Made by a program: the position numbers and the translations under genes. 25,860 nt of DNA, from IMG/VR virus record IMGVR_UViG_3300045988_049160, one strand, 5' to 3'. This stretch comes from a virus. Lineage: Duplodnaviria > Heunggongvirae > Uroviricota > Caudoviricetes. The notes below the pieces were generated by a model that searched no databases, was not told where the DNA came from, and worked only from the letters and a program-made list of their open reading frames with translations. Below are positions 1 to 24,428 of this stretch, piece after piece (position 1 is the first letter of the stretch; every line of letters starts with the position of its first letter).

Positions 1-835
1 TAATTTTAAATAACTCTCCCTGGATAAAATCTTCAGAAGCATAAAAAAGAGGCTGGCCCGGTATTCTCTCAAATAAAAAACGAGCATTTTTAAATCGACT
101 GACATCCGGAAGAGTTGATACTTTAAAAGTAAGCCCTAATCCGTCAATTTTATAACCTGGAGATGAGGCTTCAAGGCACGCGCTTATTGCAGTGGAATCG
201 TCATTTATACCATCACCAACAGCTCCAAAATCTTTGGGGCTAATAGCATCACGCATTTTATCCTGGAACGTTCGGTACACAGCCCCAGAACCATACTGAA
301 TAAACCAACCAAAACCACCAACAACTCCGGCGATTGCAGCATCGACATAATTACGCATTGAGCGATTATTTACAGCGTCCTGCTCAAATGATGGATCTGC
401 AAGGTTAGAAATTTTGTTTTGCTTTGCATCGTAATATTTTGCAAGCAAAGATGGTTTCATCAATGCACGTCTGAACCACCCAAAACATTGCTGGATCAGC
501 ATCGTCAGGTAGTCAAAGGCATCTTCATGCACTTCGGGGAAAAATTTTCCCTGATTGCGAAGGTCTGTGTCCTGCACTACATCAAGCACACGATCTATCG
601 TAATTCGCCATCCAGTAGCAAGCGGAGACGGAAGAACCACAGAACCGCCACTATAAGTGCCCGCCCCAGTTACCGTATAACCGGTATCCAGGACCAATTC
701 TGTTACGTTTCCGTTCAGATCAGACACCTGAACAACCAGGTCTGATTTTCTGAAAATTCGAAAAGTATACGGAAACGATGTCGTAACGCCGTTACCGGTG
801 TATTCGTTGTGGTCAACTTCGGTTGAGACCGTCAT
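1..835 (-). CDS. Tailspike / tail fibre protein, N-terminal ~278 aa (partial; C-terminus lies beyond the window start). T7 gp17-like particle-binding N-domain followed by the start of a pectate-lyase-like beta-helix (putative depolymerase).
   Basis: Open frame on the minus strand from ATG at 835..833 to position 1 with no stop; not in the ORF track because it is truncated. GGAG Shine-Dalgarno 8 nt upstream. Translation begins MTVSTEVDHNEYTGNGVTTSFPYTFRIF..., resembling podovirus tail-fibre N-termini; the later motif DFGAVGDGINDDSTAI is typical of beta-helix tailspikes/depolymerases. Confidence 0.6.
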   Translation of the reverse strand, partial: MTVSTEVDHNEYTGNGVTTSFPYTFRIFRKSDLVVQVSDLNGNVTELVLDTGYTVTGAGTYSGGSVVLPSPLATGWRITIDRVLDVVQDTDLRNQGKFFPEVHEDAFDYLTMLIQQCFGWFRRALMKPSLLAKYYDAKQNKISNLADPSFEQDAVNNRSMRNYVDAAIAGVVGGFGWFIQYGSGAVYRTFQDKMRDAISPKDFGAVGDGINDDSTAISACLEASSPGYKIDGLGLTFKVSTLPDVSRFKNARFLFERIPGQPLFYASEDFIQGELFKI

Positions 836-938
836 GTTAAATCTCCAGATAGTCGCAGCACCCGTTGCGCCGCATATCTGGTTATTCTATTACCTGAAAA
901 ACCATATATGGATAAAAAGACTATAAATACCAATAGAT

Positions 939-955
939 ATTACCTTTCGGGTAAT
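939..955. promoter_or_regulatory. Putative operator, inverted repeat ATTACC-TTTCG-GGTAAT (copy 1 of 5)
   Basis: Perfect 6-bp inverted half-sites with a 5-bp spacer, in the divergent intergenic region between the tailspike start (835) and the small antirepressor-like gene (1031). Confidence 0.45.
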
Positions 956-991
956 TTGCAAAACGTGCTGGATAGCAAACAAATTATTTGT

Positions 992-1011
992 TACTGTATA
1001 AACATACAGTT
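992..1011. promoter_or_regulatory. LexA (SOS) box, TACTGTATAAACATACAGTT
   Basis: CTGT-N8-ACAG with AT-rich spacer, close to the E. coli LexA consensus TACTGTATATATATACAGTA; sits about 20 bp upstream of the RBS/ATG of the 1031..1288 gene. Confidence 0.6.
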
Positions 1012-1030
1012 ATTGCATGGAGAAGATAAG

Positions 1031-1288
1031 ATGCAGCAGTATCACTATCCACTGGAAGACGGATTTACCGAAAGGATTCACACGCCGGGAGGCGTCAGGT
1101 CACTGGTGGAGGGATCGCACTTGATGAAATTACTCCGGGATCTCGATAAGGATGGATTTAATGTCGATGGCCCACTTGCCGAACTGACTGCACTGATTAA
1201 CTACGTCACCAGCTCACAGATGTCTATGCAGGATCTGCAAACACATCTCGACTATTGTGCCGAACAATTACGAAAACAAACCCGGTAA
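1031..1288 (+). CDS. Small (85 aa) antirepressor-like protein, paralogous to the C-terminal domain of the Bro-N antirepressor at 2435..3127; putative SOS-inducible antirepressor
   Basis: Internal ATG at 1031 preceded by GGAGAAG RBS; the annotated 908 start would put the operator and LexA box inside the coding sequence. IHTPGGVRSLVEGSHLMKLLRDLDKDGFNVDGPLAELTALINYV...DLQTHLDYCAEQL aligns by eye with IHSPSGVLGLTENSLLMNLLNQLQDDGHDVSGAAAELTTMFCYI...DIQTHAEYINDK of the larger protein. Confidence 0.55.
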   Translation: MQQYHYPLEDGFTERIHTPGGVRSLVEGSHLMKLLRDLDKDGFNVDGPLAELTALINYVTSSQMSMQDLQTHLDYCAEQLRKQTR

Positions 1289-1294
1289 ATTTAA

Positions 1295-1312
1295 AGGCCG
1301 CAAGAGCGGCCT
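1295..1312. terminator. Hairpin AGGCCGC-AAGA-GCGGCCT between convergent genes, likely bidirectional terminator (stronger for the minus strand)
   Basis: 7-bp GC-rich stem; on the minus strand it is followed by TTTAAATTT; overlaps the stop codon of the 1311..2039 gene. Confidence 0.4.
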
Positions 1313-2039
1313 ATCGTTTCGCTTTGTGCTCGTCCCAGCACGTTTTGCACCATGCCATTAAGCCGTCCGCATTTTGATTATTAGGGTAAAAGCTGGTCCG
1401 TTTTCTGCGGACATTACAAATTGGGCACCACTTCATATGGCGTGTATTCTTTGGGCCATCGAGACACCTTGCACACCACTTAGTCAATCCATCTGGATTT
1501 TTTGACGATTTCCGGAATTTGTCATATGGAAGGTTTATTCTGCATCGCAAACACTGCTTGCGGCCACTTGAAACTCTGTTAGCTGATTCTTCTTTTGGCG
1601 GCGATACAGAAGGTATTCTTGCTGGCTCTGATACTGCCTGAGGTGCTTTTTTAGATGACTGAGACGATATGTCATCACCAGGGAATCTTCCATGATATGC
1701 CGGACGCGTTGACACTCCAGGTGGAAGCTCAGCTGTAAACGGCTTTGGCTGAATCAGTTGCCTCTCTTTTGCTAACTCCTGCTGTTTATAATATGTCTGG
1801 ATTACCGCACTATCATAAGCAGGAGGTGCGGAAATATTAGGCGCATTACCTCCAGTTTTTTGAAACTGAGTAGAGGTGTGTTCTATCACCTGTGTACGAT
1901 TAATCGTTATCTCCCCATCTTCGGTCTTTATCGTTTTGTTATGATTAACGACCGTACGATCAGAGATCTTAGTCTTGTTCTGGTTGATAACGTAAATAAT
2001 CACCGCAACCACACCAACAACTATCCAGAAAACTTCCAT
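1311..2039 (-). CDS. Membrane-anchored protein with N-terminal transmembrane helix, Pro-rich linker and two tandem C4 zinc-ribbon repeats; function unknown
   Basis: 242-aa ORF; N-terminus MEVFWIVVGVVAVIIYVI is hydrophobic; C-terminus has two Cys-x2-Cys pairs repeated twice (CLRC...NPDGLTKWCARC and CPIC...NADGLMAWCKTC). GAGGAAAA RBS upstream of the ATG at 2039. Confidence 0.5.
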   Translation of the reverse strand: MEVFWIVVGVVAVIIYVINQNKTKISDRTVVNHNKTIKTEDGEITINRTQVIEHTSTQFQKTGGNAPNISAPPAYDSAVIQTYYKQQELAKERQLIQPKPFTAELPPGVSTRPAYHGRFPGDDISSQSSKKAPQAVSEPARIPSVSPPKEESANRVSSGRKQCLRCRINLPYDKFRKSSKNPDGLTKWCARCLDGPKNTRHMKWCPICNVRRKRTSFYPNNQNADGLMAWCKTCWDEHKAKR

Positions 2040-2058
2040 TGCTTTTCCTCACAATAAC

Positions 2059-2075
2059 ATTACCTTAAAGGTAAT
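2059..2075. promoter_or_regulatory. Putative operator ATTACC-TTAAA-GGTAAT (copy 2), perfect 17-bp inverted repeat
   Basis: Immediately upstream of the RBS of the minus-strand zinc-ribbon gene (ATG at 2039). Confidence 0.45.
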
Positions 2076-2152
2076 ATCTTGCTTTCAGGTGATCAAGCGT
2101 TAAACGCAATCAACCAAATACGGTTGATTTTAATATTTCTTCGCGTTTATCA

Positions 2153-2169
2153 TTACCTTTGCGGTAAAT
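2153..2169. promoter_or_regulatory. Putative operator ATTACC-TTTGC-GGTAAA (copy 3)
   Basis: Directly downstream of a -35/-10-like pair (TTGATT 2124-2129, 17-bp spacer), in the leader upstream of the antirepressor gene. Confidence 0.4.
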
Positions 2170-2434
2170 TTACATCGCACTCCTCTTGTGCCATAGTAAT
2201 CGGGCACTGGCAAAATCCAGTGCCGGGATTGGTCTCCCGGATTACTACAGAGGCACATATGCCGCATAAGCGGTTTTTTTATGTGTAAAGCGCACCTATT
2301 CTATGGTGGGCTGTGTGGGGGCACCGAAAGGTGCGCCGGGTTCCTTTGTAGCCGGTAAGACCAACTCTGCACAGTTCACCACCATCTGATTGGTCTCAGC
2401 GGTGGTGATTAACCTAACTACAAAGGTGATCGCT

Positions 2435-3127
2435 ATGAATACCAAACCTTCCATCTTTTCCTTTGAGTCATCCTGCCAGATCCGTATGTTCATGATTGAC
2501 GGAGAACCTTGGTTTGTCACCAAAGATGTGTGCAATGCTTTGAATATTGATGTTACACAAGCGAGAAAACTTGATAAAAAAGGCTGGAACAAAAAGGGGC
2601 TGTATTCAATACAGACCCCTGGTGGAATACAAGAACTATCCATCGTTTCAGAATCAGGTCTCTACATCCTTATTCTGCGTTGCAAAGAGGCAATGACTGA
2701 GGGAACGAGAGCATTCAGATTTCTTGAATGGGTTACAGGTGAGGTTCTTCCTCAGATCCGCCGCACCGGAAGTTACATTAAAAACTCGCTCCCGCAGGAA
2801 GAACGCATAAAGATGGTTGCCGACCAGGTAGCCAACGCCACGGCGTCAGCAGTAATGCAGGCAATGAAGATAGAGAACAAAACCTACAGTGCCCCGCTGA
2901 AGCCCGGCTACCGCAGCCTGATTCATTCGCCGTCTGGTGTTCTCGGCCTGACGGAGAACTCACTGCTGATGAATCTGCTGAACCAGTTACAGGACGACGG
3001 GCACGACGTATCGGGCGCGGCGGCGGAGCTGACCACCATGTTCTGCTACATCGTCGGTGTGAGCAAATGCCTGCGTGATATCCAGACCCACGCGGAGTAT
3101 ATCAACGACAAAGCAGGGTTCTTCTGA
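2435..3127 (+). CDS. Phage antirepressor-like protein with Bro-N N-terminal domain
   Basis: ATG at 2435 with AGGTGA RBS; N-terminal region FESSCQIRMFMIDGEPWFVTKDVCNALNI...GGIQELSIVSESGLYILILRCKEA matches the remembered Bro-N/antirepressor pattern; C-terminal domain duplicated in the 1031..1288 protein. Confidence 0.6.
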   Translation: MNTKPSIFSFESSCQIRMFMIDGEPWFVTKDVCNALNIDVTQARKLDKKGWNKKGLYSIQTPGGIQELSIVSESGLYILILRCKEAMTEGTRAFRFLEWVTGEVLPQIRRTGSYIKNSLPQEERIKMVADQVANATASAVMQAMKIENKTYSAPLKPGYRSLIHSPSGVLGLTENSLLMNLLNQLQDDGHDVSGAAAELTTMFCYIVGVSKCLRDIQTHAEYINDKAGFF

Positions 3128-3211
3128 CGAGCGGCGGCACATGGATGTGCCTACAATTATCAATAATTGTTTACACTCGTTGCAGTTAAAAGCATTATAC
3201 TCATGTTTAAA

Positions 3212-3228
3212 ATTACCCGATTGGTAAA
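3212..3228. promoter_or_regulatory. Putative operator ATTACC-CGATT-GGTAAA (copy 4)
   Basis: Lies between a TTTACA -35-like hexamer (3170-3175) and the RBS/ATG of the 3249 gene. Confidence 0.4.
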
Positions 3229-3248
3229 GTCGATTGGTTGAGGTTCAT

Positions 3249-3575
3249 ATGAGCAGAAGATATGTCAAGGAGCTGGCTATAGAGTCTGGCACCCCTTTGG
3301 GTATCGTTCCTGGCTCCAACTATGCCAAGGCTTTAAACCGAGACTCTGTCGTCAAAGTTATATCAAGAGACATGAATATGGTCGGAGACGATCTCAGACG
3401 GTCAGAAAATCGTGTTTATGCTGAATATATAGTAAAGAACGGAAAAAAAATTGCAGCGCCTGCTGGCGGAAAATGGGCAATAGTGACAGGGAAAAACTCA
3501 AATGCAAGAGGAAAACCAGAAGCTAAAGGAATGTCCTTCGACAAATATGCAAAAATCTATTGGGCAACCAAGTGA
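3249..3575 (+). CDS. Hypothetical protein (108 aa), first gene of a small operator-controlled operon
   Basis: ATG at 3249 with GAGG RBS 5 nt upstream (the track start at 3234 is a TTG). No recognisable motif. Confidence 0.45.
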   Translation: MSRRYVKELAIESGTPLGIVPGSNYAKALNRDSVVKVISRDMNMVGDDLRRSENRVYAEYIVKNGKKIAAPAGGKWAIVTGKNSNARGKPEAKGMSFDKYAKIYWATK

Positions 3576-4050
3576 TAACGAAGAAACTGAGTTCGAGGAA
3601 GTTGAGGAAGGGCTAAGTAACGAGATCATTCAACACCCAGATGCCTTCACAAGAGTTCTTGATCGCCCTGAAATTCAGGAGATAGTTGTCGCTCACCATG
3701 CGTTTCAGGGTCCGCTTCCTCCCCCCTATCTGCTTCGCGGGTATCAGGATATTTTACCTGATGCCCCCGAACGCATCTTCCAGCTGACGGAGAAGGAGTT
3801 TGCTCACCGCCAGAAAATGGAGGAAAAGGCACTTGACGGGGCTATTAATAGAGATAAACGTGGGCAGTGGTTTGGCCTGAGTGCAACTATTTTTACAGTA
3901 GCTTGTGCAACATTATTAGGTTTAACAGGTCATGAAGTTCTAGCTGGCACAGTGATCGGTACAGTTGTTGCAGTGGCTGGTATTTTCGTTCTTAGACAAA
4001 AACCAAGCATCAAGAAGAAATCTGAAGACAACAAACCTGAAGAAAAGTAA
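3502..4050 (+). CDS. Membrane protein, DUF2335-like (two C-terminal transmembrane helices); start uncertain (3502 or 3547)
   Basis: ORF overlaps the preceding gene in another frame; motif GPLPPPYLLRGYQDILPDAPERIF...EKEFAHRQKMEEKALDGAINRDKRGQWFGL followed by hydrophobic segments fits remembered DUF2335 phage membrane proteins. Confidence 0.45.
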   Translation: MQEENQKLKECPSTNMQKSIGQPSDNEETEFEEVEEGLSNEIIQHPDAFTRVLDRPEIQEIVVAHHAFQGPLPPPYLLRGYQDILPDAPERIFQLTEKEFAHRQKMEEKALDGAINRDKRGQWFGLSATIFTVACATLLGLTGHEVLAGTVIGTVVAVAGIFVLRQKPSIKKKSEDNKPEEK

Positions 4051-4071
4051 GCCCGCGCTGCGGGCTTTTTT
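4049..4071 (+). terminator. Rho-independent terminator (GCCCGC-GCT-GCGGGC followed by TTTTTT)
   Basis: GC-rich stem immediately after the stop codon at 4048-4050, followed by a T6 run. Confidence 0.6.
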
Positions 4072-4143
4072 GTGGACGAAACAAAAGTCAGTGCTACACT
4101 CATTGACGCCACATTGAGGTGGCTTATAGATGGAAATGTCACA

Positions 4144-4305
4144 ATGAAAAAAGCATTTGCTGCACTGTTCGTTTTGTTGTCTCTGGTAGCTTCAACTCAG
4201 GCCTTTGCCGGTCGTTGTCAGCACGACAGCGATACTGCCGCTGACGGCTCCCGCTGCGGTGGGCGTTCTGCGGATTCCCGCCCGGGCGGCGGTGGCATTC
4301 GTTAA
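4144..4305 (+). CDS. Small secreted peptide (53-aa precursor; predicted signal peptide MKKAFAALFVLLSLVASTQAFA; about 31-aa mature peptide with two Cys and Gly/Arg-rich tail)
   Basis: Internal ATG at 4144 of the 4072..4305 ORF; promoter-like TTGACG-17-ATAGAT upstream; own terminator downstream. Confidence 0.4.
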   Translation: MKKAFAALFVLLSLVASTQAFAGRCQHDSDTAADGSRCGGRSADSRPGGGGIR

Positions 4306-4327
4306 AAACAAGGCCGCGAAAGCGGCC
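4306..4327 (-). terminator. Rho-independent terminator ending the minus-strand late operon (hairpin GGCCGC-GAAA-GCGGCC, T-run on minus strand)
   Basis: Perfect 6-bp stem with GAAA loop at 4312-4327; the minus strand then reads TTGTTTTTAAC. Confidence 0.6.
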
Positions 4328-4328
4328 T

Positions 4329-4340
4329 GTGACATGTCAC
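4329..4340. repeat. 12-bp perfect palindrome GTGACATGTCAC (copy 1 of 4), overlapping the lipoprotein stop codon and adjacent to the terminator
   Basis: Exact sequence; identical copies at 21728-21739, 22120-22131 and 24386-24397. Confidence 0.8.
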
Positions 4341-4717
4341 GCAACGCAATTATTACCGCGCCATGTAACATTTTTAATAATCTTATCAGCACCAAACTCA
4401 ACGTAAACAGAGCAACTGAAATGGAGTGTATAACCGCCATCAGTTGTTGCGTATGTGTTTGAATATATAGTATTACCAATTAGATTAGACGTAGTATTAT
4501 ACGTTGTGGTTTGTGGTACGTTATAACTACCAGAGCTTGAGTAAACATACACTCTGTTTCCATCTGGAGATGTAAGCTCTCCCTGAGGATACCCCCACTG
4601 CTGAACCATTGCGTCTATACTCTGCCCGCGCCACGTAAGCATATTTCTTTCAAACTGTGCAGCTGACTGGCATCCAACGAGAAGCATAAATCCAAAAATC
4701 AAAAATACTTTTCTCAT
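4337..4717 (-). CDS. Lipoprotein (lipobox LLVGC), Thr/Ser/Tyr-rich mature domain; function unknown (candidate exclusion or lysis-associated lipoprotein)
   Basis: Internal ATG at 4717 gives MRKVFLIFGFMLLVGCQSA..., a classic signal peptide plus lipobox Cys; last gene before the operon terminator. Confidence 0.55.
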   Translation of the reverse strand: MRKVFLIFGFMLLVGCQSAAQFERNMLTWRGQSIDAMVQQWGYPQGELTSPDGNRVYVYSSSGSYNVPQTTTYNTTSNLIGNTIYSNTYATTDGGYTLHFSCSVYVEFGADKIIKNVTWRGNNCVA

Positions 4718-4802
4718 AATTACCCCTATCATGGAAAAACAGCACCAATCCACAAATTAACTAGTTATTTTATTATTCTTCCGAACAATACAATTCCGAA
4801 TA

Positions 4803-4925
4803 CTACAAAGCCGAACCATGCCGCTGCACGCAACAGAGATTCCAATTGAAACCCATTTTTATCAAAATGTATGAATAGCATAAAAACGCTGCACATATTA
4901 GTACAATAAAAGTTATTTGAACCAT
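4803..4925 (-). CDS. Small hydrophobic peptide (about 40 aa, one predicted transmembrane helix); alternative to the 62-aa ORF called in another frame
   Basis: ATG at 4925 (and 4928) is preceded by AAAAGGAG; translation MVQITFIVLICAAFLCYSYILIKMGFNWNLCCVQRHGSAL. The track ORF 4765..4953 has no RBS for any of its Met codons. Confidence 0.3.
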   Translation of the reverse strand: MVQITFIVLICAAFLCYSYILIKMGFNWNLCCVQRHGSAL

Positions 4926-4936
4926 CATATCTCCTT

Positions 4937-7411
4937 TTATTGCGGAGTGACATCCTGTGGTCGCCACCAGTATGTCTGGTTAAACTCTTTCTTCGAACGT
5001 TGCTCCATTTTACGCAAATAGCCTGGTGAAAAATACTCCTGCATCTGGTTAAAGATCATGTGATCGAGAGCCGCCTTCAAGTACCAGAGATTCGCACCAG
5101 GCATCAAACCTTTCCCCAGCTTCACCAGATCACCACCAGTCTGCTCACTCTTCCCTTCCACAGCATTTAACGGTATGCCCTGAGCAATCTTCACTACGTC
5201 ATCAACCAGACCAGCTACCGGGCCAAGCATCGACGCCAGCGCGCCGCTTCCGTACCTAGTGTGATCTGACAATAAAAAGTCACCGTAAAGGCCAAGACCA
5301 CCACCTTTCAGTAGAGCACCAAGCCAGAATTTTGCGGCATCTTCTCCTGTCATCTCTCGAGGATTACGACCAGACGCAAGGTCGTTAAGTTGCTGCGACA
5401 AAGCGCCAAGAATGGTCGTACTGGCAATAAACGTCGCAATATATGCCGCACGCCCACCAGCAGACGGCATACCCATAGCGCGTGACCAGTGACGCATAAC
5501 AACCGAGATAGGGAACGATTTAAACAGGAAAACACTTCTCGTTAATTCACCTTTCCATGTTCCACGCTGAATACCAGAACCGGTTATCAGTTGCTCACGT
5601 GCTCCCGGTGTAATAACAGCCATATCAACTTCTTCAGTTACGGCACCGAGCAGTTTACGCATTGCCTCAAATTTCACGCGTTCAGGCTCACCAAGATGTT
5701 TAACTGCTGAATCAGGGATACGCATAATGCTTTCCGGTGTCAGCATCGTATTATTACCGTTCCCCCAGTCCTCCTGTTTCGCCAGCTTCCATACGCTCCA
5801 GTCTGTGTCAGTAATCCCTTTGCTTTTCAGGATACGAAAATCAGAGTCATCGAGGCTACGAAGGTCTGGTGTCCGTGACACTACTTCTCCCAGGCTTCCC
5901 ATCATGGTTACGCCATAGGCGCGCTTGTGCGCATCTGACCATGCTGTAAGCCCACTGGCACGCATTACCGCCGTTGCCGCCCAACGAGACACTGACGGCC
6001 CCATATTATCCATCGCCCAGCGGTTAACGCTGCCAAGTAGAGATTCCATCGCCAGACCAGCGCGGCGCGCCCGCGCAAGTTCTGTACGGTTCGTTGGGTC
6101 CATAGCTTCAAGCTGGTTGCGGAATAACTGGTTCATTGGAAGGTTGGTAACCTTCGCAGACAGATACATGGTTCCAAGATCAGAGAACGATGACAGCAAC
6201 GCGGATCCGAGTCTGCTGGCAACCAGCCAGTTGCGGATATTGTCAGACCATCGCGCGATGTGCGGATTCGCTACAGGCTGTGTCTTTCCGGAAATAAAGT
6301 TGTACAGATTCTCTGTGTTGTTCGCCAGCCGCTCGACTTTACCGGTTTTACTCGGGTTAGCTGTTGCCGTTTCTGCCTTCACCTGATCAAGAAGAGAGCG
6401 GAAAACATGATCGGGGTTTGGGCCATATGTTTCCACCAGTGCAATATCTTTACTGATACCTTCCAGGTGACCGACCATGATTTCCCATAGAGAGCGATCG
6501 CCATAAAGTTGCTGATATTGCAGATAGGAATCTGCATCTTTGAAATGTATCTGTCGTGATGCATTACCACGGTTAGCACGTGCGCCGGAAATTCGCATTC
6601 CGGTATCAGTAAGCTTATTCAGCCCACCAGTAGCGATCGTGTTATAAGCCTCTCCAAGAAATGAAGACAACTCGGCATCGTTCATCAGTTGTCCATCGGC
6701 TCGGATATAATATTTGCGATCCAGCTTACCTATAACATCGCTAACCCACTTATCCTTTGATACTGCCCCAACCTTTTCCATAGAATGATGTTGAGGGATC
6801 CCCCAGTTTTCGAGATAGCCAATGTCCCCACCAGCATCATTAAACCGGCGGCGCAGCAGCTCTGTAACTTCTCTCCACGCCTTAGCACCGTTTCTTGCTT
6901 TAGCATTGCCAGTATTTTGCCCCCGCATTTCATATACCAGGTCACGTACGCCCGCTTCATCTTCAAACAGACCAAAAAAGCGAGGATCAACTGCTTCGAA
7001 TGCCTCCTGCAATTGACTCAATGCATAATCACGGGTGGCTTTTGTTCTGGATTCAACAGAGAGGAAATTAGATTTACCGTCTGCATTAAAAGCTATAGTA
7101 CGGTTAAGAGCGCCAAGTTTCCCATCAGCCCCTTGATAGCTATTGATAAATTTATCCAATCTCTGACGCGCGGCTATAGTGAGAGCCACACGACGTTTCT
7201 TTAATGCCGCTTCTCGCTGTAATTCTTCAGATGCCAATTGTGCTGCTCGATATAGCCGCTCTGATTCGGAAAGTTGTCGCCACGACATAGGGTCATCACG
7301 AGCAATGGAGCGCATATTTCGATAAATGCGGTCTTCAATGTTCTGTATTTCTCGCGCCGTTAACATGCGCTGCGCCGCCTGCTGAACCGCTTGTATACAT
7401 TCCTGTCTCAT
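4937..7411 (-). CDS. Internal virion / DNA-ejection protein, C-terminal region resembling T7 gp16 (internal virion protein D)
   Basis: 824-aa ORF, translationally coupled to the upstream gene; C-terminal segment VFLFKSFPISVVMRHW...ALSQQLNDL...GPVAGLVDDV resembles the remembered T7 gp16 C-terminus (VMQFKSFTIKSLNSKF...). Confidence 0.5.
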   Translation of the reverse strand: MRQECIQAVQQAAQRMLTAREIQNIEDRIYRNMRSIARDDPMSWRQLSESERLYRAAQLASEELQREAALKKRRVALTIAARQRLDKFINSYQGADGKLGALNRTIAFNADGKSNFLSVESRTKATRDYALSQLQEAFEAVDPRFFGLFEDEAGVRDLVYEMRGQNTGNAKARNGAKAWREVTELLRRRFNDAGGDIGYLENWGIPQHHSMEKVGAVSKDKWVSDVIGKLDRKYYIRADGQLMNDAELSSFLGEAYNTIATGGLNKLTDTGMRISGARANRGNASRQIHFKDADSYLQYQQLYGDRSLWEIMVGHLEGISKDIALVETYGPNPDHVFRSLLDQVKAETATANPSKTGKVERLANNTENLYNFISGKTQPVANPHIARWSDNIRNWLVASRLGSALLSSFSDLGTMYLSAKVTNLPMNQLFRNQLEAMDPTNRTELARARRAGLAMESLLGSVNRWAMDNMGPSVSRWAATAVMRASGLTAWSDAHKRAYGVTMMGSLGEVVSRTPDLRSLDDSDFRILKSKGITDTDWSVWKLAKQEDWGNGNNTMLTPESIMRIPDSAVKHLGEPERVKFEAMRKLLGAVTEEVDMAVITPGAREQLITGSGIQRGTWKGELTRSVFLFKSFPISVVMRHWSRAMGMPSAGGRAAYIATFIASTTILGALSQQLNDLASGRNPREMTGEDAAKFWLGALLKGGGLGLYGDFLLSDHTRYGSGALASMLGPVAGLVDDVVKIAQGIPLNAVEGKSEQTGGDLVKLGKGLMPGANLWYLKAALDHMIFNQMQEYFSPGYLRKMEQRSKKEFNQTYWWRPQDVTPQ

Positions 7412-9219: not shown

Positions 9220-11729
9220 TGCGGAATATCTCCGGAGAATCTCTGACGCTTCTGTGTCAGATCAAGAACAACGGGAGAACCATCATCTTTTAGCAGATAA
9301 CCAGTACCAAGTTTCACCAGGTACTGACTATCGCCGTAACTTTGCAAACCATACTGACCAGGCGGTGTTTTTATCCCTGTGCCAACAACTTGTTCATTCC
9401 AAGCCTGATTAACCTGCTTATCGAATTGCTCTGCAGACATTCCCCACGGCAAAAGAACATTCCCCATTCCGTTATAGTCATGCACGCCACCTGTAGCTAC
9501 GTTAACAGCCTGTTTCCAGATATCATTGTCAATTTCGCCTGATACCACGCCTTTTTTCGCCATCACACCAGCGTAATAGTCCTTTGCGATCTCGTATGCC
9601 ATTGATGCCCCCTGAGCATCACCAGCAAATGCATCCTTAACCATGTCAGAAAACTCAAGGCGGAGATCAGCATCTTTAGGCATCGGAATACCTTTCGCGT
9701 CATCAGTACCTTTACGAGCCGCCGCGCCAGCAAGAATTGTCTGCGCAGCGGTTTCAGGAGACACGGAAACATCCGGATTAAACCAGTTTTTTTCTGCCAA
9801 AATACCACCTGGCTTATCCATCAGTATCCCGGCAACGGCAGCAGATGGAGCGTTGGCACTGATCTGCTGTAGTGCTGACATATACACCTGCCCACCACCA
9901 GTGCTCTGCCTGATGGTATCGAGATATGCTGCCTGTTGGGAAACGGGCGCATCACGAAAGAAAACACCGATCTGATTGGCCTCGTCTTTGGAAAAGAACG
10001 TCAGTGGAGTGCCATATGACTTAGCAAGGTCACTGACCTGAGCAGCACGCAAGGCAACGCTCTGTCCAAAGTTATCCTTATTGCTCATGTCGATAGGCTT
10101 TGTCTGTCCTGCGGCAAGAGAGAACTGTACAGGATCAGCCTGTCGCTGCTTTATCACCTGACTTGCAGCCGACACAACGTTGTCATAAAGAGCGGCTCGT
10201 GCCGCATAACCCTCCCCTGTCTCACCAGTATCCGGGCGTAATTGCTCAACATATGCTGTAATGCTGCTTGTCGGCATGTTGCGGAAAGAGCCTATATACT
10301 GTCCGGCGATTTGCGTATTTCTGAACTCGGTATATCGCAGGTTTCCTTCTCTTACTCCATAAGCTGCAATAAAATCAGCCTCACCAGGTGGGTTAGGAAA
10401 TTCAACGCCACGCATATACGCAGCTGTCGCATCGCGAACCTGGCTGTCAATCATCGTTTTATATTCAGCCTGCTGCTGCCGACGCAGTTGATCCGCCTGT
10501 CGCATAAAACTTGCCTGCGCCTCAGGAGATGCCGCATCGAATGCTGCATTACCGGTATAGCGTTTGGTGTTGGTTGGAATTGTTGATAAACCAAGTGCTG
10601 CACTGACACCAGCAGTTAACTGCTGATCACTGTATGGCTGGCTACCGTTCTCATGATGGATAATGGCTGCACAAAGCGCCTTCAGGGTATCAGGATTAGA
10701 TGCATCGAGAGGCTCATCAGCAGAAACGCCAAGTTGTTCGCACACTGCTTTGATATACGACATAGTGTCATTTTTATCAGCAGGCGGTGCCCAGCGATTA
10801 ATTATCTCGCTGACGGTATCAATACCCTGCCTCTGATACGACATCAGGTTCCGCCCTAATGCACGAATCCCGTGTTCAGGTGTTTCGAATTTAGCAAATC
10901 GACCATCATCACCGGTCTGGCCTACCCACGGATTAGTTTTGCTGTATTCGAGATTTCCTGGGTTATTGTTGCGTATGCCACGGGCACGCTCGGAAGAGTC
11001 ACTATCTGCTACAGCACGGCGAGCTCCAGCAGCAGTATCACTTAACTCGCCATTACTTTGGATGAATGCGGTCGCATTGTTTGCCGACCACTGGGACAAT
11101 GCAGCATCAGCAACCTTCTCTTTAAACTCGATTTTCTTGGCCTGGATTTGCTCGTTGCTCCAGCCATGTGCAACACCGTACTCCTCAATTTGCTGGAAAG
11201 TTTGTTTGTTAGCCAATACGTATGCGGCGTTGTCGCCATACAATACTGCGGCATTTTTACCATTGTTCAGCAGTGTCGCCTGAAACTGGCCTTCTTCGTA
11301 GGCATTAATTTGCCCTATCTCGTGTCGCCCGGCCTGCGTAGTGAACTGAATGCGCTGCTGCTGCGCCTGCTGCATGAAAGCATTACGAGCCTGTTCATCC
11401 GGCAGCGACATAGCCAGTTGTTCGACCTGAGCATCAAACTGCTGCGTATACTCATGGCCTTTTCCAATAGCATTTTTCCCTTTCAGGTTAAGCAATCCTG
11501 TTTCAGGATTATTCAGCAGATCGCTGCTTATCTGACTGAGGTTAAGAGATGCCTCCTGAGCCAGAGCAATATTGGCACGCTGTTTTGCCTGCCCCAAAAC
11601 ATCAATTGCCTCTGTCCCTGCCCGAACAAAAGCATCACCAATACCTTGCTGAGAAAACGTCTGCAAGCCTGCTGACTGAACTCCACGACTCTCAACCTGA
11701 CGTCCGGATACTGTTGGTACGACTGGCAT
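9216..11729 (-). CDS. Internal virion protein (about 837 aa) with central conserved domain containing the motif RNNNPGNLEY...RWAPP (possible enzymatic, perhaps cell-wall-active, domain)
   Basis: Start re-assigned to ATG at 11729 (Met26 of the track ORF), which overlaps the upstream TAA by one base and has a GGAGGA RBS; the track start would overlap the upstream gene by 75 nt. Confidence 0.5.
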   Translation of the reverse strand: MPVVPTVSGRQVESRGVQSAGLQTFSQQGIGDAFVRAGTEAIDVLGQAKQRANIALAQEASLNLSQISSDLLNNPETGLLNLKGKNAIGKGHEYTQQFDAQVEQLAMSLPDEQARNAFMQQAQQQRIQFTTQAGRHEIGQINAYEEGQFQATLLNNGKNAAVLYGDNAAYVLANKQTFQQIEEYGVAHGWSNEQIQAKKIEFKEKVADAALSQWSANNATAFIQSNGELSDTAAGARRAVADSDSSERARGIRNNNPGNLEYSKTNPWVGQTGDDGRFAKFETPEHGIRALGRNLMSYQRQGIDTVSEIINRWAPPADKNDTMSYIKAVCEQLGVSADEPLDASNPDTLKALCAAIIHHENGSQPYSDQQLTAGVSAALGLSTIPTNTKRYTGNAAFDAASPEAQASFMRQADQLRRQQQAEYKTMIDSQVRDATAAYMRGVEFPNPPGEADFIAAYGVREGNLRYTEFRNTQIAGQYIGSFRNMPTSSITAYVEQLRPDTGETGEGYAARAALYDNVVSAASQVIKQRQADPVQFSLAAGQTKPIDMSNKDNFGQSVALRAAQVSDLAKSYGTPLTFFSKDEANQIGVFFRDAPVSQQAAYLDTIRQSTGGGQVYMSALQQISANAPSAAVAGILMDKPGGILAEKNWFNPDVSVSPETAAQTILAGAAARKGTDDAKGIPMPKDADLRLEFSDMVKDAFAGDAQGASMAYEIAKDYYAGVMAKKGVVSGEIDNDIWKQAVNVATGGVHDYNGMGNVLLPWGMSAEQFDKQVNQAWNEQVVGTGIKTPPGQYGLQSYGDSQYLVKLGTGYLLKDDGSPVVLDLTQKRQRFSGDIPQ

Positions 11730-12274
11730 TATAATCCTCCGGGTAATCTGGTTCCTGCTGCTGCCCCGATTGGCGCAGGAGTGCTTTGAGTAAACGGACT
11801 CCACGTCCCACCAAACATCTGGTACGCACCGTATGCCTTCAGAGGCGCAGTGAGCAATGTTGTTGCTGCTCCCACATTCCCCTGTTTACGGGCTGAACTG
11901 GCTTCTGCTTTATAGTTGGCAGCCTGAACCTGATAACCGTAAGCCTCGCGTTGCGCGTTATTCACCGTCGTCAGCGAATCAAGAGCGCCAAACTGGGCAG
12001 TGTCGCCAAATATATCCAGCGCGTTACCTGTAGATAAATCAGCGCCGGTAGCCCCCATTGTCGCCGCCTGTGTACCAAGCCGCTGTCGGGTCTCTCTGCG
12101 TCGTTGCTCAGCTTCAGCGTTACCTCTGTTTATTGCATCATTTGCCTGAGCTGTGGCTATATCTGCGTTCGCTTCTGCAACCTTCGAGGCATACTTTCCC
12201 TGTTGGTACTGGGTGTATGCCTGAATGCCACTCATGGCGAGCATTGCGCCACCAGCAATAACCGGATCGCACAT
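11729..12274 (-). CDS. Internal virion protein, T7 gp14-like (internal virion protein B)
   Basis: 181 aa, starts MCDPVIAGGAMLAMSGIQAY... and is Ala/Gln-rich like remembered T7 gp14 (MCWAAAIPIAISGAQAISGQ...); conserved position after the tail tubular genes. Confidence 0.45.
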   Translation of the reverse strand: MCDPVIAGGAMLAMSGIQAYTQYQQGKYASKVAEANADIATAQANDAINRGNAEAEQRRRETRQRLGTQAATMGATGADLSTGNALDIFGDTAQFGALDSLTTVNNAQREAYGYQVQAANYKAEASSARKQGNVGAATTLLTAPLKAYGAYQMFGGTWSPFTQSTPAPIGAAAGTRLPGGL

Positions 12275-18408: not shown

Positions 18409-18701
18409 TCCTGTTCACTGGCCTCTTTGGCCATCTTCAAATACTGTTCAGGGCAATGCGCCATAACGCGCTGAAACAGTTCCAGCGCCAGATTGCGTTG
18501 CCCCTCATTAAATGCCATTGCCATAGCGTCCATCGGTGAGATAGCGGAAAACACACGGCCTTTCTCCAGCACCGACCAGACAACGCGACGCCCCTGTTCA
18601 CTGCTCATGACAAAGCAAATGTCATCAATTTCACGCTGTGCCATGTCACGTTGCTTACGGGCGTTTTCTTCTTTCAGTTGATCGTCTTCGTAATCTGTCA
18701 T
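18405..18701 (-). CDS. Hypothetical head-assembly-associated protein (98 aa)
   Basis: Translationally coupled between portal and scaffold. Confidence 0.4.
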   Translation of the reverse strand: MTDYEDDQLKEENARKQRDMAQREIDDICFVMSSEQGRRVVWSVLEKGRVFSAISPMDAMAMAFNEGQRNLALELFQRVMAHCPEQYLKMAKEASEQE

Positions 18702-20687: not shown

Positions 20688-20704
20688 ATTACCTTTCAGG
20701 TAAC
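20688..20704. promoter_or_regulatory. Putative operator ATTACC-TTTCA-GGTAAC (copy 5)
   Basis: About 90 bp upstream of the gp6.7-like start, in the region where the structural operon must restart after the plus-strand moron insertion. Confidence 0.35.
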
Positions 20705-21025: not shown

Positions 21026-21102
21026 GTGGCATTAGCTCAGCTGGACAGAGCAACCGCTTTCTAAGCGGTTGGTCGCAGGTTCGAATCCTGCATGCCACGC
21101 CA
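21026..21102 (+). tRNA. tRNA-Arg (anticodon UCU)
   Basis: 77 nt with CCA; acceptor stem GTGGCAT/ATGCCAC, D-arm GCTC/GAGC, anticodon stem CCGC/GCGG with loop TTTCTAA, T-arm GCAGG-TTCGAAT-CCTGC. Related to but not identical with remembered E. coli argU. Confidence 0.85.
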
Positions 21103-21146: not shown

Positions 21147-21188
21147 GCGGTGATGGTTTCCCTTGAAGGACTATCACCGCCCTTTTTA
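21147..21188 (+). terminator. Rho-independent terminator downstream of the tRNA
   Basis: GGCGGTGAT...ATCACCGCC 9-bp stem followed by CTTTTTAC. Confidence 0.55.
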
Positions 21189-21265
21189 CAGCATGACGCC
21201 ATTGCGATGGCTTCATGCTGTAAACCAGTACAGCCACGGAAGGCATAACTCATTGCTTCCAGTTC

Positions 21266-21290
21266 GCCCGATTCGCCGGGCATTTTTTTT
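21266..21290 (+). terminator. Terminator-like hairpin plus T8 immediately 5' of gene A (GCCCG-ATTCGC-CGGGC-A-TTTTTTTT)
   Basis: GC stem and T8 run ending 10 nt before the ATG at 21301; the same cassette is duplicated before gene B. Confidence 0.4.
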
Positions 21291-21300
21291 AGGTGAGATC

Positions 21301-21723
21301 ATGAAAACAGCCGACATGCTAGCTAAATATCTAAATGAATGGCCGTGCAAATATGTACGCATTGTTCAGGGTGATGACTCAATTTTTTATGGTGTTTTTG
21401 CAGGAAATGAAATGCTTTGTGAAGCAATTCCAGGTGAGCGACTTGCCGGGTTAACGCTTAGCGATGACCATGGAATAGGAGTTACTTGCCATGACTGGAT
21501 TTCAGCGCAGAAAACTGAAATGGAAAAAGGCAATGTGTTTGATATTTCTCGCGCTGTATACGCCAAAGAAAAAAGTGATGATGATTACATGCGCGAAAAC
21601 TTATACAACATGAAGTTACAATGCCTGGCTGAAGTGCTTAGTAAAAGATCTTTACTTGATGTGGTTGGTGCTGAGCAGGACGCCAAGGCAATCAACGCCG
21701 CATTCGATAAAATAACCTTCTAA
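21301..21723 (+). CDS. Hypothetical acidic protein (140 aa), moron gene A
   Basis: ATG at 21301 preceded by AGGTGA; the track start at 21163 would run through the upstream terminators. Opposite orientation to the flanking structural genes. Confidence 0.55.
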   Translation: MKTADMLAKYLNEWPCKYVRIVQGDDSIFYGVFAGNEMLCEAIPGERLAGLTLSDDHGIGVTCHDWISAQKTEMEKGNVFDISRAVYAKEKSDDDYMRENLYNMKLQCLAEVLSKRSLLDVVGAEQDAKAINAAFDKITF

Positions 21724-21744
21724 CGCCGTGACATGTCACAATCA

Positions 21745-21771
21745 GCCCGCCGATTCGCCGGGCATTTTTTT
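21745..21771 (+). terminator. Rho-independent terminator after gene A (GCCCG...CGGGC then T7), also the leader of gene B
   Basis: Hairpin at 21745-21763 followed by T7, then AAGGTGA RBS and ATG at 21784. Confidence 0.5.
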
Positions 21772-21783
21772 AAGGTGAAAATC

Positions 21784-22116
21784 ATGAAAGAGAAGACTGC
21801 AGCTGAGCGCTATGCCGCAGCTATCAATGCCGCGATGGCGATTGTAAACCTGCGTGAAGAGATTAAAGATCTCCTTGCAATTATCCATAACAACCTGACA
21901 TGTACAGAGTTGCTTGGCGGTCAGTACAACGGTGAGGCGGTGAAGGAGGCATTTAAAAATGCCGAGGTAGGAATAATTCCAGCAAACTATGTCAAGGCTG
22001 AATGTGTGCTCCTAAAGGCACGAGTGAGTCTGCATGAAGATCCTGGTAATCTCGGTCGAACTGCAATGCGTTACGTGATAGACGAGTCGAATGCCAAACA
22101 CAATCTACCGAAATAA
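21784..22116 (+). CDS. Hypothetical protein (110 aa), moron gene B
   Basis: ATG at 21784 with AAGGTGA RBS; 5' leader almost identical to that of gene A. Confidence 0.55.
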   Translation: MKEKTAAERYAAAINAAMAIVNLREEIKDLLAIIHNNLTCTELLGGQYNGEAVKEAFKNAEVGIIPANYVKAECVLLKARVSLHEDPGNLGRTAMRYVIDESNAKHNLPK

Positions 22117-22135
22117 CACCGTGACATGTCACAAA

Positions 22136-22162
22136 CAGCCAGCCTATGAGCTGGCTTTGTTT
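22136..22162 (+). terminator. Rho-independent terminator after gene B (AGCCAGC-CTATGA-GCTGGCT then TTGTTTT)
   Basis: Perfect 7-bp stem followed by a T-rich tract. Confidence 0.6.
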
Positions 22163-22206
22163 TATCCTCACCAGAGGATATCAACGACATTATCCCCACC
22201 AGCGGA

Positions 22207-23682: not shown

Positions 23683-24275
23683 TGATTGCCATCCTGACGT
23701 TCTTTCAGTCTCTTCCTGGCTGCCGCTATGCGATCAGCAATTGTCACATTCACATTAACATCCAGGCGTTCTTTGAATGCGTTGACGTCGACGTGCTTAC
23801 CAATCAGTTCGAGGTTCTTCACCTTGTCAGGCCATTTAATTTTTTTGAGGATTGTCTCTATCGAATCCTCGTTCATGTTCATGATGGTCGATGACAGATC
23901 AAAGCCACTAAGCGTAGTGCGCCAGATTTTCGGCCACTCGCGGATTGGCTTAAGGCTCCCATCGTCGTTGAGGATGTCGATCACGTCCATCTGGTCGATC
24001 TCCACCAGGCGCATGAGAACGTAATCAGCACTGACGCGCATTCGTTTGTTGCGCTCTTCCATCAGCTCGGCAATCCGTTTTTGAATGCGTTCATCGCGCA
24101 TCATGAGACTGGCTTTAACTGCCGCTGTATTTGGGGAGAATCCTGCGTTAATCGCTGCCTGAGTCTGGTTTTCAGGCGTTTTGATGTATGACTGGCAATA
24201 AGCCTCCTGCATTGCTGTTAGTGGCTTAAATTGCGTTGATTTGCGTTTATAGGTTTTAGGTTCAGCAGGCATCAT
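23679..24275 (-). CDS. Terminase small subunit (putative); start at 24275 or 24272 rather than 24353
   Basis: Directly upstream of and coupled to terL; helix-turn-helix-like segment TQAAINAGFSPNTAAVKASLMMRDERIQKRIAEL typical of small terminases. The track start would place a terminator hairpin and low-complexity repeats inside the coding sequence. Confidence 0.55.
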   Translation of the reverse strand: MMPAEPKTYKRKSTQFKPLTAMQEAYCQSYIKTPENQTQAAINAGFSPNTAAVKASLMMRDERIQKRIAELMEERNKRMRVSADYVLMRLVEIDQMDVIDILNDDGSLKPIREWPKIWRTTLSGFDLSSTIMNMNEDSIETILKKIKWPDKVKNLELIGKHVDVNAFKERLDVNVNVTIADRIAAARKRLKERQDGNQ

Positions 24276-24325
24276 AACCACCGTGGTAATAGTTACCGTT
24301 GTGGTAATAGTACCATGCAAAATAA

Positions 24326-24345: not shown

Positions 24346-24428
24346 GTATTCAAAACCCATCAAATTCATCATGCATAATCTACTCGTGACATGTCACGCT
24401 ATTAATTTCGTTTCATGCCAGCCTTTAG

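Follow-up and report, generated by a model that had tools for sequence, protein, structure and literature searches.

A predicted antirepressor region with variable accessory genes lies between the ejection-protein operon and the tailspike gene of a phiV10-like prophage of Escherichia coli

The stretch of DNA analyzed here (25,860 nucleotides, IMG/VR record IMGVR_UViG_3300045988_049160, assigned to Caudoviricetes; hereafter the window) raises the question of why the gene for its tailspike does not adjoin the genes for its internal virion (ejection) proteins. The tailspike gene starts at position 835 on the minus strand and the last large gene of the ejection-protein operon, on the same strand, ends at 4937; 4101 bp with open reading frames (ORFs) on both strands separate the two. 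An initial annotation had set this locus against a T7-like module and had read the interval as about 4 kb of accessory cargo of mixed orientation that uncouples the tailspike from the operon. The mixed orientation is borne out by the ORFs, but comparison with relatives points to a different origin: judged from its sequence, the interval is very probably an antirepressor (second-immunity) region with swappable accessory genes added in relatives.

The interval in Uetakevirus genomes

BLAST placed the window at 96-98% nucleotide identity to phages phiV10, phiv142-3 and HEMP4 and, over shared parts, at 96.5-98% to ZX5; within its first 9.3 kb it is 96-98% identical to these four phages and ~80% identical to the Salmonella phages of the SPN1S/epsilon15 group, all of them members of Uetakevirus. 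The rest of the window is collinear with phiV10 through the small and large terminase, portal, protease, capsid and tail proteins, after which there follow, in the phiV10 order, a core protein of the T7_gp14 family and internal proteins of 862, 600 and 824 amino acids (aa). The Uetakevirus gene order (terminase, portal, capsid, core proteins, ant, tailspike) is thus kept. A near-identical complete prophage, L006, sits between guaA and yfgI and encodes an integrase, a double helix-turn-helix repressor and lambda-P-type replication genes; the phage is therefore temperate and not T7-like. Members of Uetakevirus characteristically integrate at the 3' end of guaA by means of a P4-type integrase, which holds for L006, whereas the window reaches neither prophage end. 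By these matches the window is an epsilon15/phiV10-like (Uetakevirus) temperate podovirus, a prophage of E. coli. A P22-like (Lederbergvirus) identity, first suggested by the antirepressor region beside the tailspike, was excluded by the BLAST matches. Parts of the interval are present in 678 of 5426 complete E. coli genomes.

The T7-like frame does not fit a phage with such identity to phiV10 and its relatives. The window does recall gp14-gp15-gp16 of T7 in that its T7_gp14-family protein is followed by three large internal proteins, but these lack Pfam matches, the phage is temperate (its nearest complete relative carries an integrase, the repressor Rep and a lambda-P-type replication protein), and in no member of Uetakevirus does a tail fiber come next after the large proteins. 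The defining order of the T7-like (Autographiviridae) module, with gp14-15-16 followed directly by the tail fiber, is found neither in the window nor in its relatives, in which the tailspike never adjoins the core proteins.

We compared the interval across 80 IMG/VR loci fetched around an 85-aa gene in it, together with phage records; both borders were present in 75 loci, where the gap measures 645-6502 bp (median, 3779). In epsilon15 (0.69 kb) and SPC32H (0.66 kb) it holds a small membrane-protein gene, a bidirectional terminator and a divergent 85/86-aa gene. phiV10 (1.66 kb) adds a BRO-N gene, phiv142-3 (2.9 kb) has a BRO-N gene and small ORFs, and the gap of Klebsiella phage BUCT711 (2.2 kb) includes a DUF2335 gene. 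Every relative examined (epsilon15, SPC32H, phiV10, ZX5, the Klebsiella member and the 80 IMG/VR loci) has a divergent antirepressor gene between the internal-virion-protein operon and the tailspike, and the starts of the tailspike gene and of the 85-aa gene nearly always lie 196-197 bp apart (204 bp in Salmonella). The ground plan conserved in the group is one in which a divergent ant sets the tailspike apart from the core-protein genes. Since an ant-containing gap is present in all relatives, the supposed uncoupling is this ground plan itself, and 4.1 kb is an ordinary length for the E. coli members. What stands of the proposed insertion is the physical and transcriptional separation and the presence of variable cargo in part of the DNA; the separation as such is conserved. 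The initial annotation had allowed that related phages might instead carry the same genes as conserved core, and this is what we find for ant and, largely, for a unit composed of two small RNAs, isrK and C4, and a BRO-N gene. Both RNAs occur in 77 of 88 loci and are absent only from minimal-gap members, the Salmonella phages and the Klebsiella phage.

The antirepressor genes and their proposed control

The 85-aa product of the first plus-strand gene of the interval is the orthologue of SPC32H Ant and epsilon15 gp19, and the gene is annotated ant in SPC32H and SPC32N (coordinates of this and all other features are given in Table 1). In 88 of 92 loci a LexA (SOS) box of the form CTGT-N8-ACAG precedes the 85-aa gene, and the box is kept across genera, from E. 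coli to Salmonella; of the four loci without it, two lie at contig edges, one has an insertion, and one, the Klebsiella member, reads ATGT for CTGT. The window contains three matches to the pattern against 0.5 expected, and 3 of 100 shuffles reach three, which is not significant alone; the weight of the box therefore comes from its conserved position and not from pattern frequency. Both an operator and a LexA box are present in the region that the initial annotation took for the tailspike promoter, but the LexA box adjoins ant, at 22 nt, and faces away from the tailspike. For this reason we assign it to ant, which it most plausibly serves rather than the tailspike, given its position, its conservation and the precedent of SPC32H.

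The LexA-Ant-Rep antirepression system of SPC32H was reportedly described by Kim and Ryu in 2013 and Kim et al. in 2016 (PDB 5D50/5D4Z). After self-cleavage of LexA, Ant is made, binds Rep through direct contact between the two proteins and breaks up the DNA-binding Rep tetramer, as set out in passages of PMC7380047 and PMC9638917. SPC32H Rep itself is reported not to be RecA-cleaved (cited in PMC9638917). The likeness of the window to this system is close: an orthologous Ant of 85/86 aa is encoded divergently from the tailspike and convergently with the core operon, the LexA box lies at the same place, and a Rep homologue is present in the sister prophage L006. The repressor of L006 matches the Rep chain of PDB 5D50 (chain A) with an E value of 3.5e-42, and in alignment this E. 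coli Rep is seemingly only distantly similar to SPC32H Rep; for ZX5, a figure of 42% against the epsilon15 repressor has been given (PMC9782041). The systems differ in that the SPC32H interval, at 0.66 kb, holds ant only, whereas the window adds a BRO-N-fused Ant paralogue with an isrK/C4 leader and morons.

A second line of evidence for a regulatory region comes from the palindrome TTACC-N5-GGTAA, found at 940-954, 2060, 2153, 3213, 20689 and 24293. With up to one mismatch allowed there are 7 matches in the window against 0.41 expected, a number reached in 0 of 100 shuffles. Homologous 17-bp sites, including one beside ant, are annotated as "protein_bind repressor" in the RefSeq record of epsilon15. 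In L006 and phiV10 two copies of the palindrome, 62 bp apart, separate the repressor gene from the leftward early operon and a single copy separates it from a cro-like gene; two more, with the same 62-bp spacing, follow the replication genes, one stands ahead of an epsilon15p03-like gene, and the ant-tailspike interval has the palindrome as well. Across loci the density of these putative operators is 0.82/kb in the gaps versus 0 in 15.3 kb of structural genes, and their number grows with gap length (Spearman 0.49, p 7e-6). From this distribution we infer that the Rep regulon takes in all cargo transcription units of the window; these would then be silent in the lysogen and expressed once the prophage is induced or the phage infects a cell. 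Which of the two divergent promoters, that of ant or that of the tailspike, the operator at 940-954 would control is not settled.

The operator pairs with 62-bp spacing lie at 7757/7819 and 10854/10916 in L006 and at 31953/32015 and 35070/35132 in phiV10 (our locus L005), in the immunity and replication regions, and the window operators at 2060 and 2153 lie 93 bp apart around the divergent promoters of a 242-aa gene and isrK. Such pairing is compatible with one Rep tetramer bridging two sites. Elsewhere in the window, the operator-like palindromes TAACCACCGTGGTAA and TTACCGTTGTGGTAA, 18 bp apart (24275-24307), fall within the start of the small terminase gene, and the second is shared with phiV10 (L005 87) and L006 (15021). 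A strong TTGACA promoter-like site (20667) is overlapped by the putative Rep operator at 20689-20703, upstream of a 320-nt leader and a tRNA-Arg(TCT) gene; this leader had no match in a permissive Rfam search. The tRNA gene is closely followed by an 18-bp inverted repeat (21185-21202 / 21207-21224) that shares bases with a second CTGT-N8-ACAG match (21218-21233).

By its domains, the gene at 2435..3127 encodes a second antirepressor in which a BRO-N domain is fused to a C-terminal domain paralogous to Ant: this C-terminal domain aligns with Ant over 74 aa at 42% identity (E 1e-15). The protein is 80% identical to ORF4 of ZX5, the C-terminal 110 aa being nearly identical. Overexpression of that ZX5 "anti-repressor" lowered the prophage titer ~1000-fold and reduced repressor transcription (PMC9782041). 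ZX5 belongs to the same genus as the window, has an identical Ant and the same 1039-aa endosialidase-type tailspike, and shares the order of ant, BRO-N "anti-repressor" and two more ORFs, the second of which matches the DUF2335 protein of the window. It differs in lacking the 242-aa minus-strand gene, with an "ash family" ORF instead, and in its C4 class (a' CCTTTTAG and b' ACGCCAA, against CCTTTGTAG and AGACCAA in the window). LexA is not mentioned in the ZX5 paper (0 occurrences; PMC9782041).

An isrK-type small RNA and a C4-type antisense RNA, both scoring above their Rfam gathering thresholds, precede the BRO-N gene. Loop a' of the C4 RNA is exactly complementary to the downstream target a2, and bulge b' is complementary both to b2 and to b1 within isrK. 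We found eight C4 specificity classes, combining 4 a' types and 3 b' types, in 64 distinct leader variants of related loci; in 8 of 8 classes the boxes a2, b1 and b2 match the C4 loops by exact complementarity over 7-9 nt, while a1 is exact in five and carries one mismatch in the three CCTTTGTAG classes, that of the window included. This covariation of the boxes is strong evidence that the C4 pairings are functional. We judged pairing by exact box matching and covariation in place of RNAduplex, which was uninformative when the whole C4 RNA was run against whole targets, the observed energy being reached by 45 of 500 shuffles for the downstream target and by 10 of 500 for isrK.

The immI operon of phages P1 and P7 has the order c4-icd-ant; the details of P1 immI given here are reportedly those of Citron and Schuster in 1990 and Heinrich et al. 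in 1995. In the isrK-orf45-anrP locus of Gifsy-1, read-through of the isrK terminator gives rise to the antirepressor mRNA, the translation of which is controlled by RNA pairing (PMC4825925). The window resembles both systems in having an antirepressor gene preceded in the same transcript by C4, with targets upstream, in isrK, and over the ribosome-binding site, in having a promoter with a putative operator of the primary repressor, and in its covarying specificity classes. The differences are that the window has no identified icd/orf45 leader ORF (the ORF list contains no evident ATG-started ORF at 2281-2434), that the protein is a fusion of BRO-N with the C-terminal domain of Ant and not P1 Ant1/2, and that the BRO-N antirepressor coexists with a separate Ant predicted to be LexA-controlled. 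The eight C4 classes look like the heteroimmunity classes of the P1/P7 kind.

Table 1. Features of the window, in order of position, with the evidence for each
Feature	Position	Strand	Evidence or remark
Tailspike, N-terminal 278 aa	1..835	-	Uetakevirus particle-binding domain, then endosialidase N-terminal extension; gene runs off the left end
Candidate tailspike promoter	-10 TAGAAT 889->884; -35 TCCATA 912->907	-	17-nt spacer; conservation
Putative Rep operator TTACCTTTCGGGTAA	940-954		Between divergent ant and tailspike; conserved in 6/6 aligned genomes
LexA (SOS) box CTGTATAAACATACAG (CTGT-N8-ACAG)	994-1009	+	22 nt upstream of the ant start codon
ant, 85-aa antirepressor	1031..1288	+	PDB 5D50 chain E "Anti-repressor protein", E 4.1e-47, residues 2-84; phrog_450
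Terminator hairpin AGGCCGC-N4-GCGGCCT after ant	1295..1312		Left copy of the hairpin at 4311-4328
242-aa protein	1311..2039	-	N-terminal membrane helix and two C-terminal zinc-ribbon (CxxC) modules; phrog_6762, full length
Putative Rep operator	2060-2074		20 nt upstream of the 242-aa gene start
Putative Rep operator	2153-2167		Directly upstream of the isrK promoter; kept in all 66 leader variants
Promoter-like site of isrK	-35 TTTACA 2169-2174; -10 CATAGT 2192-2197	+	Predicted transcription start roughly coincides with the first base of the isrK model
isrK-type small RNA with its own terminator	2204..2280	+	Rfam RF01394, 74.7 bits (gathering score 50)
isrK target boxes b1 TTGGTCT; a1 CTACAGAGG	2229-2235; 2245-2253	+	Box matching
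C4-type antisense RNA	2299..2386	+	Rfam RF01695, 78.6 bits (gathering score 45)
C4 loop a' CCTTTGTAG; bulge b' AGACCAA	2343-2351; 2358-2364	+	Box matching
Downstream C4 targets b2 TTGGTCT; a2 CTACAAAGG	2390-2396; 2418-2426	+	a2 covers the BRO-N Shine-Dalgarno sequence
BRO-N antirepressor (predicted)	2435..3127	+	Bro-N E 2e-13; phrog_130 anti-repressor; phrog_450 on residues 147-228
Putative Rep operator	3213-3227		Just downstream of a promoter-like site (-35 TTTACA 3170-3175, -10 CATTAT 3193-3198), before the 108-aa gene
108-aa protein	3249..3575	+	phrog_10654
DUF2335 membrane protein	3502..4050	+	Overlaps the 108-aa gene; Pfam DUF2335 E 1.6e-15; phrog_3996
Terminator after the DUF2335 gene	4049-4067	+
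53-aa signal-peptide protein	4144..4305	+	"Membrane associated protein" moron; phrog_14503
Terminator hairpin, G+C-rich	4328->4311	-	Minus-strand T-run; closes the virion operon
Palindrome GTGACATGTCAC (12 bp)	4329-4340		Overlaps the lipoprotein stop codon
Lipoprotein with lipobox	4337..4717 (or to 4753)	-	N-terminus MRKVFLIFGFMLLVGC; phrog_3716
62-aa hydrophobic peptide	4765..4953	-	ORF list; 3' of the 824-aa gene on the same strand
824-aa internal virion (core/ejection) protein	4937..7411	-	Homologue of epsilon15 gp17 and phiV10p20; phrog_684 virion structural protein, 1283 bits
T7_gp14-family core protein	11729..12274		Family match; upstream of the large internal proteins
tRNA-Arg(TCT)	21026-21102	opposite to structural genes	After the 320-nt leader

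The virion operon, the tailspike and the variable genes

The right-hand border of the interval is much as the initial annotation had described it, with a minus-strand ORF ending at 4937 (824 aa) and an operon end after a small hydrophobic peptide and a lipoprotein, where a hairpin with a T-run was found. The lipoprotein and the 62-aa peptide form the variable tail of the virion operon and are paired in only ~11 loci. A Pfam search with the three large core proteins gave no match, and the term "gp16-like" for the 824-aa protein is therefore valid by position alone.

At the other border, the tailspike has its own ribosome-binding site, as had been proposed: a GGAG Shine-Dalgarno sequence precedes the start by 9 nt. 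The prediction of a glycan depolymerase with its catalytic part beyond the window agrees with the full-length protein of L006, a 1039-aa tailspike of the endosialidase family whose residues 1-278 are 100% identical to the 278 aa encoded in the window. The L006 tailspike has End_beta_propel (772 bits), End_tail_spike and Peptidase_S74 domains (beta-propeller, beta-barrel, stalk and C-terminal chaperone) and matches endoNF of phage K1F (PDB 1V0E/3GVL) over residues 205-876 with an E value of 0. We did not recover the beta-helix signature read from the N-terminus in the initial annotation: DFGAVGDGINDDSTAI is present in the translation, but DFGAVGDG lies inside the Pfam domain End_N_terminal (E 1.3e-32, residues 205-271), and a pectate-lyase-like match falls below threshold (E 0.004, 17 bits against a cut-off of 27). 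Of the endosialidase (GH58) domains only End_N_terminal lies within the window, the remainder being seen in the 1039-aa protein of L006. From this domain and its full-length homologue, the tailspike is predicted to be a K1-type polysialic-acid endosialidase with a beta-propeller and not a beta-helix fold.

Compared with the endosialidase tailspikes of K1 phages (endoNF of K1F, and those of K1E, K1-5 and CUS-3), the window shares the N-terminal extension and its full-length homologue shares the beta-propeller, beta-barrel, stalk and chaperone domains. It differs from K1F and CUS-3 in residues 1-200, which are of the Uetakevirus particle-binding type instead of a T7-like (K1F) or P22-like (CUS-3) adaptor; this particle-binding part matches the N-terminus of PDB 28lx_A (residues 1-209). 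A member of Uetakevirus with an endosialidase tailspike, ZX5, has already been published (PMC9782041).

The tailspike is probably transcribed away from the interval, from a conserved promoter-like element of its own, in which ATTCTATTACC and ATATG.AT are invariant or nearly so across the E. coli, Salmonella and Klebsiella members. A sigma-70 consensus scan of 836-1030 on both strands reported no promoter, this element included, and the promoters proposed for ant and the tailspike are candidates put forward on cross-genus conservation alone.

The genes for the 242-aa, 108-aa, DUF2335 and 53-aa proteins, the lipoprotein and the hydrophobic peptide are present in some relatives only and constitute true variable cargo (morons). 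The 242-aa protein has a weak Pfam match to Stc1 and, on residues 142-241, matches to zinc ribbons of the endonuclease VII and Lar-like types, and in strain N25 a YafO-toxin gene pair takes the place of its gene. NCBIfam gave no match for the cargo proteins, PADLOC gave 0 matches for 7 of them at E <= 0.01, and Pfam gave none for the small regulators and morons elsewhere in the window.

The cargo at 1313-4310 is bracketed by two copies of the hairpin AAGGCCGC-N4-GCGGCCT, while epsilon15 and SPC32H, which are without this cargo, have one copy followed by GTGACATGTCAC; the duplication fits growth of the region at a bidirectional terminator. Exact copies of GTGACATGTCAC are found at 4329-4340, 21728-21739, 22121-22132 and 24386-24397, and a one-mismatch copy at 18638-18649 inside a coding region. 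The copies at 4329, 21728 and 22121 lie between the stop codon of a gene and its terminator hairpin; that at 24386 comes after the gene lying ahead of terS (small terminase) and has no terminator behind it; in the sister prophage it overlaps the stop codon of the gene it follows. At the site after the core operon the palindrome is also found in epsilon15, SPC32H and the Klebsiella phage despite differing flanks (6286 in L088, 6286 in L089 and 7467 in L091), and homology to other prophages breaks at 4330 or at 4341-4345, its two edges. A full-text literature search for GTGACATGTCAC found no paper.

In strain N25 and in TL-2011b, the tailspike-proximal cassette adjoins, at GTGACATGTCAC, a P22-type Arc/Ant pair together with internal virion proteins that are larger and of another kind (L004 5313-6252 and 8616-11015; L007 12541-14932). 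Within the window, two small plus-strand ORFs at 21301-21723 and 21784-22116, without family matches, are arranged as cassettes (21268-22163): the repeat CCGATTCGCCGGGCATTTTTTT-AGGTGA, made up of a terminator and a ribosome-binding site, stands before each ORF, and GTGACATGTCAC with a terminator comes after it.

Alternative readings and a proposed mechanism

Since the interval carries cassette-like genes, it might mainly be a hotspot for lysogenic-conversion, superinfection-exclusion or defense genes that benefit the host, in the manner of sieA beside gene 16 of P22, with the antirepressors incidental to it. The membrane, secreted and lipoprotein products (242 aa, DUF2335, 53 aa and the lipoprotein), the classing of two products as "moron" by PHROGs, the YafO-type toxin pair that replaces the 242-aa gene in other prophages and the gene swaps at conserved junctions all speak for such a hotspot. 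We nevertheless consider it improbable as an account of the whole: none of the 7 cargo proteins has a PADLOC match, a Rep operator at the promoter of each plus-strand unit and of the 242-aa gene predicts repression in the lysogen, and the ant and isrK-C4-BRO-N units are regulatory and nearly universal. The hotspot reading can hold solely for the variable genes, and so limited it is compatible with an antirepressor region.

P22 offers a parallel in map position. Its immI region, sieA-mnt-arc-ant, lies between gene 16 and the tailspike gene 9, and arc-ant-9 run in the direction of the late operon, under the control of Mnt and Arc. The window likewise has its antirepressor/second-immunity region between the ejection genes and the tailspike; it differs in that ant and the BRO-N unit diverge from the tailspike gene and that the proposed control is by LexA, Rep and C4. 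The interval of the window has no Arc or Mnt genes, and its match to P22_AR_N reaches 17.6 bits (E 0.0044) against a cut-off of 30.7. Relatives of the TL-2011b type do carry Arc and a P22-type Ant in this interval.

Recent splitting of a once-contiguous T7-style ejection/tail-fiber operon by ~4 kb of foreign cargo, after which the tailspike would have gained an SOS/repressor promoter, accords with the differing content of the interval among relatives, the two copies of one terminator hairpin around 1313-4310 (single in epsilon15 and SPC32H) and the T7_gp14-family core protein upstream, but merits hardly any credence and as a whole is already refuted by synteny, as no relative has the tailspike directly after the core genes, the minimal state is always a divergent ant with LexA box and operator, the LexA box is far closer to the ant start codon (22 nt) than to the start of the tailspike (~160 nt), from which the operator separates it, the phage is 96-98% identical to a Uetakevirus, phiV10, and the cargo units bear the phage's own operator.

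If the interval is an antirepressor region, we hypothesize that it works as follows. In the lysogen, host LexA bound to the SOS box at 994-1009 would keep ant (1031-1288) off. Upon DNA damage LexA would be removed and the 85-aa Ant made, which would bind Rep and take the Rep tetramer apart, as has been shown for the SPC32H orthologues. Loss of Rep would then open the promoters with TTACC-N5-GGTAA, namely those of the 242-aa gene, the isrK-C4-BRO-N unit and the 108-aa/DUF2335 unit. The BRO-N protein, with its Ant-like C-terminal domain, would act as a second antirepressor, and its translation would be gated further by the C4 antisense RNA, the loops of which can pair with the ribosome-binding site, with isrK upstream carrying copies of the same target boxes. 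By analogy, the proposed arrangement is of the kind seen in P1/P7 immI and in Gifsy-1 isrK-anrP.

Several points weigh against this model. For this prophage it draws on sequence and the SPC32H analogy alone; the rep gene lies outside the window and is seen solely in the near-identical prophage L006; TTACC-N5-GGTAA is a putative Rep site; and five cargo genes have no function assignment. In addition, the operators at 940-954 and 2153-2167 do not cover the presumed -35 elements but stop just short of them on the upstream side, so that simple occlusion is not obvious there, and looping by the Rep tetramer, or even activation, may occur at these two sites.

A more ambitious version, which we regard as conceivable though rather doubtful, treats the interval as a two-input device for induction and cross-immunity. 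A LexA-gated Ant and a BRO-N-Ant gated by Rep operator, isrK and C4 would share one Rep-binding domain, at least eight C4 classes (4 a' x 3 b') would set which co-resident or superinfecting relatives cross-induce, and GTGACATGTCAC at the junctions would be functional, as a protein site or RNA signal, and would guide module exchange.

The main parts of the interval each have a published or curated counterpart, and the layout has already been described: there are Ant, Rep and LexA in SPC32H, the BRO-N anti-repressor and endosialidase tailspike of ZX5 (PMC9782041), the isrK and C4 families of Rfam and the operator annotation of epsilon15. With a known counterpart for each main component, the finding is in itself already known and of low interest. 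In the sources consulted we found no statement of the paralogy between the C-terminal domains of Ant and the BRO-N protein, of Rep operators on all cargo units, of the eight C4 classes or of GTGACATGTCAC at junctions.

The separation of tailspike and core genes, as originally posed, matters little, being part of the normal epsilon15-like genome plan. The value of the analysis lies in annotation, with the LexA box assigned to ant and the putative operator to the Rep regulon, and in a tailspike that predicts a host range of strains with the K1 capsule. Uetakevirus prophages of this kind are common in E. coli, and the C4 classes together with the conserved junction palindrome may serve as modest leads for the study of prophage cross-induction and mosaicism.

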